Shown here one piece after another: positions 40,145 to 44,530 of a stretch of DNA of 64,000 bases. Every line of letters starts with the position of its first letter. The first letter of the stretch is position 1. A program made the position numbers and the translations under genes. This stretch comes from Agathobacter sp. (lineage in GTDB: Bacteria > Bacillota > Clostridia > Lachnospirales > Lachnospiraceae): positions 6,807-70,806 of the forward strand of contig JBGVLD010000018.1 in NCBI GenBank assembly GCA_045124075.1, given 5' to 3'. The notes beneath the pieces are model-generated. The model searched no databases. It worked only from the letters and a program-made list of their open reading frames with translations, and was not told where the DNA came from.

Positions 40145-40168
40145 GAAATAAAATTGGCAGGAAAGACG

Positions 40169-41203
40169 ATGACAGAACTTATTCAGGAAATCAAAGAAAA
40201 ACAGAATATTACCTTAGATCAGTTGAAACAGATTCTTTCAGAAACCAATCAGGAGAAGATACAGCAGCTGTATGATGCCGCTGCCCAAACAGCAGAAGAA
40301 ATTTATGGAAAAAATATTTTTATCCGGGGGCTTATTGAATTTACGAATTATTGTAAAAATGACTGTTTTTACTGTGGAATTCGAAGAAGCAACAAAAACG
40401 CAGACCGATATCGGTTAAGCAAAGAAGAAATTCTTTCCTGCTGTGAAAATGGGTATGAACTGGGATTTCGGACTTTTGTGCTACAAGGCGGGGAAGACCC
40501 ATATTTTACGGATGATGTGATCTGTGATATTGTTTCGGAAATAAGGCGGAACTATCCAGATTGCGCCATTACCCTGTCTATTGGAGAAAAAGAAAAGGAA
40601 AGCTACAGGCGGTATTTCGAAGCGGGAGCCAACCGATATCTCTTGCGCCATGAAACCGCAAATGATTGCCATTACAGAATGCTGCATCCCAAGGAACTTT
40701 CTTTAGAACACCGGAAACAATGTCTTAGAGATTTAAAAGAAATTGGCTATCAGGTGGGTTGTGGATTTATGGTAGGATCTCCGGGACAGACACCTGAAAC
40801 CCTATACCAGGATCTGCAGTTTATCAAAGAATTGCAGCCTCAGATGGTGGGAATCGGGCCTTTTATCCCACAGAAAGATACGCCTTTTGCACAGAAAACA
40901 GCAGGAACCTTGGAAATGACCTTGAAACTTCTCTCCATTATCAGATTGATTCATCCCCATGTTCTATTGCCTTCTACCACGGCGCTTGGAACGATTCATC
41001 CTCTGGGGCGAGAGAAGGGAATTCAGGCAGGAGCCAATGTAGTAATGCCGAATCTTTCCCCTGTGGCAGTTCGGGAGAAATACAAATTATACGACAATAA
41101 AATCTGCACGGGAGACGAAGCTGCCGAGTGCCGATACTGTATGCAGAGGCGCATGGAAAGTATCGGATATCAGGTGGTAGTTGACCGGGGAGATTACAGA
41201 TAA
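40169..41203 (+). CDS. hydE: [FeFe]-hydrogenase maturation radical SAM protein HydE
   Basis: RGLIEFTNYCKNDCFYCGIR, RYLLRHET, GANVVMPNLSP, YKLYDNKIC. Confidence 0.92.
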   Translation: MTELIQEIKEKQNITLDQLKQILSETNQEKIQQLYDAAAQTAEEIYGKNIFIRGLIEFTNYCKNDCFYCGIRRSNKNADRYRLSKEEILSCCENGYELGFRTFVLQGGEDPYFTDDVICDIVSEIRRNYPDCAITLSIGEKEKESYRRYFEAGANRYLLRHETANDCHYRMLHPKELSLEHRKQCLRDLKEIGYQVGCGFMVGSPGQTPETLYQDLQFIKELQPQMVGIGPFIPQKDTPFAQKTAGTLEMTLKLLSIIRLIHPHVLLPSTTALGTIHPLGREKGIQAGANVVMPNLSPVAVREKYKLYDNKICTGDEAAECRYCMQRRMESIGYQVVVDRGDYR

Positions 41204-41232
41204 CAATTATTCATTTTCAAAAATCAATATAT

Positions 41233-41775
41233 TAGGTGATTGCGAAATTTCTTTCGCCAGAGTTTCATAATACATTAGCATTTGTGCATTCCAAGAATTT
41301 CTTTTCAAAGCATTATGACGAAATGCCAGAAATTCCAAGACTTCCTGCCGTTGGCTGTTTTTTGTCTTACCACTCCTTCGACTATCAGCGGCTTAGTGTC
41401 CGCGGGAAAGCTCACCTTAAGAACTTTCTAGTTCCTCTAAGCGTGCGTTCTCACAAAGTCTCTATGAGAATGGTGCGGGCAAAACTCGCTTTATGTTCAT
41501 TGGAAGCAAGAAGTTTATGTGCTCAAACAGTTGCCCTGCACCATTCAGTTTTGTTCGCCCGCACGCGTAAGAGGAACACGAAATTCCTTAAATGGTGATT
41601 GCTTTCTACGCGAACACTAAGCCGCTGATTGTTCGAAGCTTGGGAAGACTAAAATAATCTCATACAGCGGCAGGAAGTCTTATGGAATTTCAGCATTTTG
41701 GCATAGCGAGAAAAGAAATAATTGGAACGCACAAATGAAGTATGATAAGGGGCGAAAAAATTTCGCAATCACCTA
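41233..41775. mobile_element. 543-bp non-autonomous foldback element (MITE-like) with a 12-bp target-site duplication
   Basis: Terminal inverted repeat TAGGTGATTGCGAAATTT; direct repeat AAATCAATATAT at 41221-41232 and 41776-41787; arms complementary along their whole length. Confidence 0.85.
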
Positions 41776-41804
41776 AAATCAATATATATATATAGGAGGA
41801 AATT

Positions 41805-43223
41805 ATGTATAACGCAAAATCATTAAAAGCAGAGGAATTTATTTCTGACGAGGAGATTATGGAGACTCTTGCCTATGCAGATGCCAACAAAGACAACGTG
41901 GAATTAATTGATGAAATCATTGCAAAAGCAAAGTTACAGAAAGGATTAAATCACAGAGAAGCATCTGTGTTGCTGGCTTGTGAGATTCCAGAAAAGATTC
42001 AGGAAGTATATGACCTGGCTAAGAAAATAAAAGAAGATTATTATGGTAACCGTATTGTATTATTCGCACCACTTTATCTTTCCAATTACTGTGTAAACGG
42101 ATGTGTTTATTGCCCTTATCATCTGAAAAATAAACACATTGCAAGAAAGAAACTGACACAGGAAGAAATTGTAAAAGAAGTTACTGCATTACAGGATATG
42201 GGGCATAAGCGTCTGGCTATTGAGTTGGGAGAAGATCCGGTAAATAATCCGATTGATTACGTTTTAGAAAGTATCAAGACGATTTATGGAATCAAACATA
42301 AAAACGGAGCAATCCGTCGTATCAATGTAAATATTGCAGCAACTACCGTAGAGAACTACAGAAAATTAAAAGAAGCAGAAATTGGAACCTATATCCTTTT
42401 TCAGGAGACCTATAACAAAAAGAGTTACGAAGAACTTCATCCAACGGGACCAAAGCATGATTATGCATATCATACAGAAGCTATGGACCGTGCCATGGAA
42501 GGTGGAATTGATGATGTAGGTCTTGGGGTATTATTTGGATTGGAAATGTATCGTTATGAATTTGCAGGACTCTTAATGCATGCAGAACATCTTGAGGCAG
42601 TACATGGAGTTGGACCTCATACTATCAGCGTACCAAGAATCAAGAGAGCAGATGATATCGATCCGGATCAGTTTGACAACGGAATCAGTGATGATATTTT
42701 TGCAAAAATCTGTGCACTCATTCGAGTAGCTGTTCCATATACAGGAATGATTATTTCTACTAGAGAATCTCAGGCTGTCAGAGAAAAAGTATTGCCGCTT
42801 GGAGTTTCTCAGATCAGCGGTGGTTCAAGAACCAGTGTAGGTGGATATGCAGAGCCGGAACCAGAAGAAGATAATTCTGCACAGTTTGATGTCAGTGACC
42901 AGCGTTCTTTAGATGAAGTGGTAGACTGGCTCATTGACTTAGGATATATTCCATCTTTCTGTACGGCCTGCTACAGAGAAGGAAGAACCGGAGATCGTTT
43001 CATGGCATTATGTAAGAACATGCAGATTTTAAACTGCTGTCATCCAAATGCGTTAATGACTTTAAAAGAATATCTGGAAGACTATGCAGGAGAAGAAACC
43101 AGAACGAAAGGTCTGGCACTTATTGATAAGGAACTGGAAAAAATCACTAATCCGAAAGTAAAACAGACTGCTTATGAACATATCCATGATATCGGAGAGG
43201 GAAAGAGAGATTTTCGTTTCTAA
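41805..43223 (+). CDS. hydG: [FeFe]-hydrogenase maturation radical SAM protein HydG
   Basis: APLYLSNYCVNGCVYC, LFQETY, GPHTISVPR, C-terminal SFCTACYR...CHPNA. Confidence 0.95.
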   Translation: MYNAKSLKAEEFISDEEIMETLAYADANKDNVELIDEIIAKAKLQKGLNHREASVLLACEIPEKIQEVYDLAKKIKEDYYGNRIVLFAPLYLSNYCVNGCVYCPYHLKNKHIARKKLTQEEIVKEVTALQDMGHKRLAIELGEDPVNNPIDYVLESIKTIYGIKHKNGAIRRINVNIAATTVENYRKLKEAEIGTYILFQETYNKKSYEELHPTGPKHDYAYHTEAMDRAMEGGIDDVGLGVLFGLEMYRYEFAGLLMHAEHLEAVHGVGPHTISVPRIKRADDIDPDQFDNGISDDIFAKICALIRVAVPYTGMIISTRESQAVREKVLPLGVSQISGGSRTSVGGYAEPEPEEDNSAQFDVSDQRSLDEVVDWLIDLGYIPSFCTACYREGRTGDRFMALCKNMQILNCCHPNALMTLKEYLEDYAGEETRTKGLALIDKELEKITNPKVKQTAYEHIHDIGEGKRDFRF

Positions 43224-43291: not shown

Positions 43292-44530
43292 ATGGCAAAC
43301 ATGAATGAAACACCATCTGCAAACAGACTGCATATTGGAGTCTTTGGAAAGACTAACAGTGGGAAATCATCTTTTATCAATGCTTTTACCGGACAACAGG
43401 TATCTATTGTGGCAGAGGTAGCAGGAACTACCACAGATCCGGTCTATAAGCCAATGGAAATTCATCCTTTGGGACCTTGCGTCATCATTGATACGGCAGG
43501 ATTTGATGATGTAACAGAACTGGGAGAACTTCGTATGGAAAAGACCCGGTTGGTGGCGGAAAAAACAGACATTGCCATATTGCTCATCTCTGTCCCAGTG
43601 GAGGAAATGAACGAAGAAGAATGGCTTTCCTCTCTGGAAAAAGAGAAAAAATGGTGTGAGTACTTTAAAGAGAAGAAAAAACCTGTACTGGTAATTTTAA
43701 GTAAGACAGATATGCTAGGCGAAAGCCAGGAAGCAGTGTATAAGGACGTTTTAAGGAAGCAGTGGAAAAATCCAGTGATTCTCTATAGTGCAGTGACTGG
43801 AAAAGGTTCAGAGGCGGTAAAAGAAGAACTTGCCCGGCTCATACCAGAAAACTATGGAAATGACTATATTACTGGAAATCTTGTGTCAGAAGAAGACTTG
43901 GTGCTCCTTGTTATGCCTCAGGATATTCAGGCTCCAAAGGGCAGATTGATCCTTCCTCAGGTGCAAACCATCCGAGAACTGCTGGATAAAAAATGCCTTG
44001 TGGCAAGTGTGACCACAGATAAGTTCATACCTATGCTTTCTATATTAAAACAAACGCCTAAGCTGATTATTACGGATTCCCAGGTATTTGGCTATGTATA
44101 TGAACACAAACCAAAGGAAAGTATGCTGACTTCTTTTTCTGTACTTTTTGCGGCTTATAAAGGAGATCTGCCATATTATATTGAAGGAGCGAAAACAATT
44201 GATTCTTTAACCGGAGAATCAAAAGTGCTGATTGCAGAATGTTGTACTCATGCACCATTGACAGAGGATATTGGAAGAGAAAAGATTCCTGCTATGTTGA
44301 AAAAACGATTCGGAAATACACTACAGGTGGAGCATGTCAGCGGAACAGATTTTCCACAGGATCTCACAGAGTATGACCTGGTGATCCAGTGCGGCGCCTG
44401 CATGTTCAACAGAACTTACGTGTTGTCTCGGATTGAACGGGCAAAGGAACAGCATGTACCAATGACTAATTATGGGGTAGTAATTGCCCATCTTACAGGC
44501 ATTTTGGATAAAATAACCATCACAAATTAA
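43292..44530 (+). CDS. hydF: [FeFe]-hydrogenase maturation GTPase HydF
   Basis: GKTNSGKSS P-loop, DTAG, PKGRLILPQVQ, ECCTH and QCGACM. Confidence 0.95.
   Translation: MANMNETPSANRLHIGVFGKTNSGKSSFINAFTGQQVSIVAEVAGTTTDPVYKPMEIHPLGPCVIIDTAGFDDVTELGELRMEKTRLVAEKTDIAILLISVPVEEMNEEEWLSSLEKEKKWCEYFKEKKKPVLVILSKTDMLGESQEAVYKDVLRKQWKNPVILYSAVTGKGSEAVKEELARLIPENYGNDYITGNLVSEEDLVLLVMPQDIQAPKGRLILPQVQTIRELLDKKCLVASVTTDKFIPMLSILKQTPKLIITDSQVFGYVYEHKPKESMLTSFSVLFAAYKGDLPYYIEGAKTIDSLTGESKVLIAECCTHAPLTEDIGREKIPAMLKKRFGNTLQVEHVSGTDFPQDLTEYDLVIQCGACMFNRTYVLSRIERAKEQHVPMTNYGVVIAHLTGILDKITITN

Follow-up and report, generated by a model that had tools for sequence, protein, structure and literature searches.

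MITEs (short for miniature inverted-repeat transposable elements) derived from insertion sequences (ISs) with DDE transposases are known from several bacterial groups, examples being MIC231/IS231 of Bacillus, the Correia elements of Neisseria and the ERIC sequences of enterobacteria. The foldback (FB) transposons of eukaryotes, which belong to unrelated transposase lineages, have arms made of tandem subrepeats, and among bacterial ISs the members of the IS1182 family measure approximately 1.3–1.95 kb. IS1272, the IS1182-family element of staphylococci, is reported to have 16-bp terminal repeats, to target stem-loops, which it replaces, and to leave no target duplication (PMC5678879). Here, we analysed a 64,000-nucleotide stretch of DNA from Agathobacter sp., a member of the Lachnospiraceae (assembly GCA_045124075.1, contig JBGVLD010000018.1, positions 6,807 to 70,806 of the forward strand; hereafter the window), in which a 543-bp non-coding foldback element lies between hydE and hydG in the operon for [FeFe]-hydrogenase maturases. 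We consider this element, with a probability of roughly 0.85, to be a non-autonomous MITE that depended for its movement on an enzyme supplied in trans, the DDE transposase encoded by an approximately 1.75-kb IS1182-like IS, which is common in the genus and its relatives. This reading builds on the insertion and its empty site, the ends and duplication lengths common to element and IS, the lack of a transposase in the assembly, and the flipping and collapse observed among relatives of the element. The copy in the window would have been moved by this particular transposase.

Like the bacterial MITEs named above, the element is short and non-coding, carries IS-type inverted ends and the duplication made by its partner IS, and is multi-copy, intergenic, strain-polymorphic and hairpin-forming when transcribed. 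Unlike them, it shares only 16 nucleotides (nt) with the partner IS, its entire 543 bp form one imperfect palindrome with a conserved tip, and its family displays long duplications of variable length (10–14 bp), a centre-deleted series reaching down to 34 bp and in-place flipping. The partner IS resembles the IS1182 family, including IS1272, in its size, its single transposase of approximately 490 amino acids (aa) with a DUF772 and a putative DDE region, and its 16-bp ends; unlike that family, its transposase falls far short of the family cut-off, and unlike IS1272, it leaves clean 10–14-bp duplications and lies between flanks that form no inverted repeat. Repetitive extragenic palindromic (REP) sequences and REPINs (mobilised by RAYT, an HUH Y1 transposase), as well as the palindromes associated with IS200/IS605, are likewise hairpin-forming, non-coding, dispersed in intergenic DNA and equipped with co-varying stems, and are thought to act as DNA hairpins; unlike the element described here, with its 12-bp duplication and DDE-type ends, they have neither. 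The likeness to FB transposons, namely an element made up almost entirely of arms, with a centre prone to inversion and deletion, implies no homology.

The insertion in the hydE-hydG spacer

The element starts 29 nt past the stop codon of hydE and ends 18 nt before the AGGAGG of hydG (Table 1). Its terminal inverted repeats are perfect over 18 bp and extend to 25 nt at 92% complementarity in a repeat search. The direct repeat around it reads as 13 nt (AAAATCAATATAT, at 41220-41232 and 41775-41787) if the element's final A is included, and as a clean 12 nt (AAATCAATATAT) otherwise. Further inwards, the repeat search recovered complementary arm blocks at 41279-41306/41710-41737 (89%), 41337-41353/41665-41681 (94%), 41359-41404/41609-41654 (78%) and 41468-41479/41535-41546 (92%), and a reverse-strand self-match gave 71% identity between the two arms over their full length. 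A single strand of the element folded in RNAfold into one rod of -259.6 kcal/mol, compared with a mean of -137 (standard deviation 6.6) for 100 dinucleotide-preserving shuffles of the 543-nt sequence, none of which folded as well (z = -18.7), and pairing in this copy was continuous from the ends to the tip, with no layer boundary. The sole internal open reading frame (ORF; 41236-41598, 120 aa) matched no NCBIfam family. These results bear out the initial annotation, made from the sequence alone, which had described a mobile, non-coding foldback of 543 bp along its whole length, with 18-bp perfect terminal repeats, an exact 12-bp duplication and internal complementary arm blocks, and had proposed a search for empty sites.

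Such empty sites were found in conspecific strains. An exact look-up of the 472-aa HydG protein returned 16 public metagenome contigs, and all ten of those displayed carried a hydE-hydG spacer of 42 bp (..TTCAAAAATTAATATATATAGGAGG.., ...ACAATTATTCATCTTCAAAAATTAATATATATAGGAGGAAATTATG) without the element. Their target was present as a single copy (AAATTAATATAT), with no remnant of the element or of a terminal palindrome. At one position, both target copies in the window read C and the empty alleles read T (AAATCAAT vs AAATTAAT), as is expected if one target was duplicated in a slightly different strain. Beside the site, an (AT)n run is longer by 4 bp (two units) in the filled than in the empty alleles, which is ordinary microsatellite variation. 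Given these empty sites, the entire foldback is a recent, strain-specific insertion into the 42-bp spacer. An origin in which only the core inserted into the loop of a pre-existing target palindrome was also considered and is ruled out for the window copy, as the empty site holds no palindrome. A metagenome scan for the exact left-junction pattern returned no match, and neither did a look-up of the hydE protein.

Other species of the genus also mostly lack an element at this position, their hydE-hydG spacers of 17–243 bp being free of it in 10 of the 11 species examined. In the 243-bp spacer, which belongs to genome G009, the 3' end of hydE recurs within a tandem duplication of approximately 100 bp that is unrelated to the MITE. 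The eleventh species (G013, C111), whose HydG is 85% identical over the first 120 residues, does have a family member, older than the one in the window, inside its 541-bp hydE-hydG spacer, with the tip in the opposite orientation, decayed ends (..CACAGAAAATGCGAAAT) and different outer arms. Since conspecific strains lack the window copy, this insertion and the one in the window occurred independently, and the simplest reading of two independent hits in one spacer is a preference for this AT-rich spacer.

The probable partner insertion sequence and its ends

Our searches within the genus covered 151 genomes, which are labelled here by G-numbers, G000 being the source assembly (91% complete). 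The end motif TAGGTGATTGCGAA, with at most one mismatch, was present in 85 of the 151 genomes and reached 65 occurrences in a single genome, compared with 0–3 for the reversed control. Many of the matches lay approximately 60–150 nt from contig ends, a hallmark of repeats at which assemblies break. In genomes available as single contigs, TAGGTAATTGCGAAAC and the complement of TAGGCGTTTGCGAAAC delimited a unit of 1752–1767 bp with one ORF of 490 aa. This IS was found in G529 and G561, on plasmid pCY360 of Butyrivibrio proteoclasticus B316 and on a plasmid of Roseburia sp. 831b, and the transposase was present in 5 of 24 sampled relatives in the genus. Against Pfam, the 490-aa protein matched DUF772 with 49.7 bits (cut-off 23.1) and, weakly, DDE_Tnp_1_6 (20.6 bits, cut-off 25.1) and DDE_Tnp_1 (18 bits, cut-off 23). 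More than 3500 homologues were retrieved from public data, where they are named only 'transposase' or not at all, and many of them lie on contigs of approximately 1.7–2 kb. On pCY360, a gap of 14 bp separates one copy of the IS from the end of another, and these 14 bp (CATTTATTTATAAA) are duplicated on the first copy's far side (L230:429-474), which indicates insertion directly beside an existing end.

The ends tie the element to this IS. Those of the window copy (TAGGTGATTGCGAAAT) agree with the IS consensus (TAGGYRWTTGCGAAAC) at every invariant position, and the consensus of 18 IS ends (TAGG-Y-R-W-TTGCGAAAC) is the same as that of 36 MITE ends. The target duplications agree as well: perfect duplications flanked six of nine IS copies (10, 11, 12, 12, 12 and 14 bp), and MITEs of 34, 37, 42, 73, 208–211, 543 and 545 bp had duplications of 10–12 bp. 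Taken together, the 20 duplications measured 10 (4×), 11 (7×), 12 (8×) or 14 bp (1×), with an A+T content of 80% compared with 61% for the genome. An IS1272-like mode, with insertion into inverted repeats, was examined for the copies that lack a duplication and was rejected, their flanks being non-complementary.

In its IS-matching ends, its duplication length, its small size, its mobility and the lack of a transposase gene, the element is a MITE, even though it would not be one in the strict sense, in which the interior has descended from an IS by internal deletion. Two statements of the initial annotation thus need to be revised. It had named no mobilising enzyme, and the ends together with the duplication length match an IS with an IS1182-like DDE transposase; it had also suggested an undescribed family of palindromic mobile elements, and by the same features this is a MITE of a known kind. 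Its further proposals, to look for other copies, for longer copies with the same ends and an ORF, and for covariation between the arms, yielded same-end copies at many loci in the genus, the 1752–1767-bp IS with its 490-aa transposase, and the compensatory changes described below.

According to the mechanism that we propose, the transposase would recognise the 16-bp ends (TAGGYRWTTGCGAAAC) and cut AT-rich intergenic DNA with a stagger of 10–14 bp, and the target would be duplicated when the gaps are repaired. The interior is not derived from the IS; it forms a long and imperfect palindrome whose tip is conserved and which behaves as a feature of the DNA, in that relatives flip in place, lose their centres down to 34–42 bp and stay equally complementary on both strands. 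Plausibly, an extruded or single-stranded hairpin could set both ends side by side for the transposase.

Neither tblastn nor a whole-genome search of the 91%-complete G000 assembly detected a transposase of the 490-aa type, which makes the element an orphan MITE. Since the insertion is recent, the transposase must have been available in the lineage, and its source is perhaps on unassembled or unbinned DNA.

Relatives, the conserved tip and competing readings

G000 contains a single full copy of the element, and its terminal 14–15 nt recur as 34-bp mini-palindromes (Table 1) and as solo ends. Two solo ends (TAGGTGATTGCGAAAGGAG; C91:4375-4393 and C59:28006-28024) lie directly upstream of start codons, one of a gene for a PD-(D/E)XK 'transposase' (PF12784) and one of a gene for a 100-aa membrane protein, where the solo end with GGAG may serve as a ribosome-binding site. 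The PD-(D/E)XK gene was considered as a possible participant, and nothing pointed to its involvement. Four elements of genome G032, measuring 545, 314, 203 and 42 bp, have identical ends. The 545-bp member forms a whole-length hairpin (-276 kcal/mol) whose tip motif is that of the window element, although its arms cannot be aligned with those of the latter, and the shorter members keep the outer arms with progressively more of the centre missing. In G523, G555 and G026 a shell of 209–211 bp is the commonest form. Further evidence came from a related species, in which 22 contigs of public metagenomes with identical lactate dehydrogenase carry a tip-bearing foldback in the spacer after ldh in three states (L252-L261), namely 646 bp in one orientation, 648 bp with an inverted central segment of 440 bp, and 228 bp without the centre. 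The inverted 440-bp segment matches at 86% in reverse, compared with a self-complementarity of 67%. These three alleles show that both deletion of the centre and in-place flipping occur within populations, and the minis of 34–42 bp are best read as collapsed copies.

In G036, eight cores are 85–94% alike, each of them within its own near-perfect outer palindrome of 24–36 bp that cannot be aligned between copies. Compensatory double changes were found in 17 of the 172 predicted pairs (seven copies), mostly in the outer stem, and the inner 290 columns are nearly invariant. The outer arms could reflect either nesting within further palindromic elements or homogenisation between the two arms; capture of donor flanks was rejected, as no arm matches the flank of another copy. 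A look for empty sites of the G036 copies returned only assemblies from one and the same sample. Three of the eight G036 copies (L029, L031 and L036) contain an extra two-hairpin insertion of approximately 90 nt in the right arm only, which looks like another small nested palindromic element. Two insertions interrupt a copy in G025 (C53; L192:396-900), one a nested palindrome of 158 bp and the other an IS with a 445-aa DDE_Tnp_1 transposase; the latter was considered as a partner and set aside as unrelated, since it interrupts the copy and its ends do not match. BLAST searches of plasmid and phage collections with the element and with a 34-nt end gave no meaningful match. A full-text literature search found no paper on MITEs of the Lachnospiraceae, the broader literature on IS1182 and MITEs having been followed only as far as the paper on IS1272.

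The tips of family members in G025, G036, G513 and G032 carry the pair AAAACTCGCT..GCTCAAACAGTT. The exact pair (AAAACTCGCT ... GCTCAAACAGTT) occurred in 4 of the 151 genus genomes and was absent from the 400 other genera of the family that were sampled, each represented by one genome. When a slightly shorter tip pattern was run across every species representative, chance accounted for most of the hits, in keeping with its length, and approximately 20 loci lay at the tips of long hairpins (arm-alignment scores of 60–150). These loci belonged to Anaerocolumna jejuensis, a second Anaerocolumna, Lachnoclostridium, other Lachnospiraceae, unclassified Bacillota, Anaerovibrio, Rhodoferax, Albitalea, Ideonella, Hydrogenophaga, and metagenome-assembled genomes of a Burkholderiaceae and a deltaproteobacterium. 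The hairpins of these other taxa are approximately 230 nt long and lack IS1182-type ends, and none of the tip-bearing hairpins of this length is in Rfam 15. Hairpins of approximately 230 nt capped by AAACTCGCT..GCTCAAACAG were seen at L118:6640-7202 and at L133, L092, L137, L122, L121, L102, L132, L114, L098, L134, L083 and L140, and A. jejuensis has two tip-bearing hairpins arranged head to head in a repeated unit of 616 bp. A search of G000 with half-motifs revealed no autonomous version with two tip motifs far apart.

Several observations weigh against the element being a MITE of the IS1182-like IS. In a BLAST comparison with two IS copies, only the terminal 15 nt (15–16 nt) matched and the interior had no similarity, meaning that the element is not a simple deletion derivative of the IS. 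The best NCBIfam match of the transposase, the IS1182 family NF033551, scored 74.9 bits and did not reach the curated cut-off of 270, which makes the family placement approximate, hence the term 'IS1182-like'. Nor does the G000 assembly encode a transposase of this kind that could have supplied the enzyme when the element inserted. Lastly, the MITE model accounts neither for the copy-specific, near-perfect outer arms in G036 nor for a tip of approximately 22 nt that is conserved across phyla.

A rival reading is an element in two layers, in which the tip-bearing inner hairpin is a separate, cross-phylum module that is nested in, or carried by, a MITE shell of the IS1182 type. The module could be a hairpin that is mobile in its own right, or it could serve as the docking site of a conserved protein or an enzyme that acts on hairpin DNA once extruded, with the shell providing only the ends used for this jump. 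This is consistent with the tip capping hairpins devoid of IS1182-type ends in other taxa, with the similar G036 cores inside outer palindromes that cannot be aligned, with the coexistence of a shell-only 203-bp and a core-bearing 545-bp form in G032, and with the 209–211-bp shell being the commonest form in three genomes. However, the short forms in G032 are equally explained by loss of the palindrome centre, and no enzyme, separate duplication or empty site specific to an inner module was found. The lone candidate for an inner duplication (L033) overlaps conserved core sequence, and in the window copy pairing runs uninterrupted between ends and tip, without a layer boundary. We therefore regard a two-layered origin as a possible but rather unlikely alternative.

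Equally tentative is the idea that the tip (AAAACTCGCT, a variable mini-hairpin and GCTCAAACAGTT) is a functional module, read on extruded or single-stranded hairpin DNA by a protein or enzyme conserved in multiple phyla. If so, the foldback MITEs would have captured the tip module or be built around it, and the tip might aid extrusion of the hairpin and pairing of the ends, shield the palindrome from cleavage, or give a second route of mobility.

We also considered that the hairpin might be a structured RNA, as the initial annotation had suggested, or a cis-regulatory RNA of the hyd operon; as part of the hydE-hydG transcript it would be selected for its control over hydG and hydF, affecting either their stability or their expression. 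The very stable predicted fold, the position of the element within an operon and just before a ribosome-binding site, the second family member in the equivalent spacer of G013 and the compensatory changes in the stems are what such an RNA would lead one to expect. Yet the element is missing in conspecifics with identical HydG and in 10 of 11 other species of the genus, the loop of the G013 copy points the opposite way, other copies adjoin unrelated genes and a related copy is flipped between strains. Moreover, neither strand is favoured: across 16 full-length members, oriented by their tips, there were 176 G-U pairs on one strand and 182 on the other, with similar fold energies. Rfam 15 contained no family for the element, the only hit up to E = 1 being a chance match to a microRNA model (E = 0.42), and nothing relevant for eight related loci and hairpins. 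Because pairing is equal on both strands, flipping occurs and Rfam offers no match, the hairpin is best read as a property of the DNA and not as a dedicated RNA, and the results favour a constraint on the DNA palindrome or a process that homogenises it. An RNA function is accordingly very unlikely in our view.

Finally, we give next to no credence to the element being a product of site-specific or microhomology-mediated recombination, with the 12-bp repeat as an att core or microhomology instead of a staggered-cut duplication: even though tyrosine-recombinase integration likewise leaves a 12–13-bp direct repeat around the insert, and the filled and empty alleles have (AT)n runs that are unequal by 4 bp, the 20 independent same-end insertions have duplications that differ in sequence and vary from 10 to 14 bp, which is the signature of staggered cuts as opposed to a single att core, the elements lack an associated recombinase, and the matching autonomous element encodes a DDE transposase.

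The hyd operon and the meaning of the insertion

The positions of the element's parts and of the flanking genes are given in Table 1. A TM1266-family regulator is encoded upstream, and the regulator, HydE, HydG and HydF all score well over their NCBIfam cut-offs.

Table 1. Parts of the inserted element, its genomic surroundings and its mini-palindromic relatives (positions are those of the window unless another sequence of the source assembly, G000, is named).
Feature	Position	Strand	Remarks
hydE, upstream of the insertion	40154..41203	+	NCBIfam TIGR03956, 610 bits
Left copy of target-site duplication, AAATCAATATAT	41221..41232	.	Exact direct repeat of 41776-41787
Foldback MITE, entire inserted unit	41233..41775	.	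543 bp; missing from conspecific contigs; no protein-family match
Left terminal inverted repeat, TAGGTGATTGCGAAATTT	41233..41250	+	First 16 nt are the IS-type end
Left foldback arm	41251..41479	.	Pairs with 41533-41757; no similarity to IS interior
Conserved apex: AAAACTCGCT, variable 30-nt loop, GCTCAAACAGTT	41481..41532	+	Motif pair common to tips of family members
Right foldback arm	41533..41757	.	Repeat search, fold, self-match
Right terminal inverted repeat	41758..41775	-	Exact reverse complement of left repeat
Right copy of target-site duplication, AAATCAATATAT	41776..41787	.	Exact match to left copy
Ribosome-binding site of hydG, AGGAGG	41794..41799	+	Read from sequence; identical in empty-site alleles
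hydG, downstream of the insertion	41805..43223	+	NCBIfam TIGR03955, 930 bits; protein identical in 16 public contigs
hydF, next gene of the operon	43292..44530	+	NCBIfam TIGR03918, 524 bits
34-bp mini-palindromes of G000	C53:22042-22075; C96:14713-14746		C53 copy flanked by exact 10-bp duplication TCAAAATAAT

Scanning the element for promoters and terminators showed that promoter-like and terminator-like sites were no commoner than in shuffled sequences and that no U-tract follows the rod. These data provide no evidence for a promoter or intrinsic terminator supplied by the element. RNase III cleaves long double-stranded stems. A transcript reading through the operon would carry a stem of approximately 250 bp, and cleavage by RNase III could split the hydE message from that of hydG and hydF, an uncoupling that the initial annotation had proposed. 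The insertion would probably be neutral or mildly polar for hydG and hydF.

With the 12-bp duplication and the TAGG...GCGAAA ends pointing to an IS1182-like transposase, the mobilising enzyme can be named, and the filled and empty hydE-hydG spacers provide a natural before-and-after pair for an IS/MITE family that is abundant and unannotated in Lachnospiraceae of the gut and rumen. Such repeats break metagenome assemblies and can pass for RNA genes, and recognising them improves annotation. The tip motif, which is common to unrelated hairpins of other phyla, is the sole part that could lead to something new. With a potential double-stranded RNA stem of approximately 250 bp in its [FeFe]-hydrogenase maturase operon, this hydrogen-producing gut bacterium offers a natural experiment on how polarity acts within operons.

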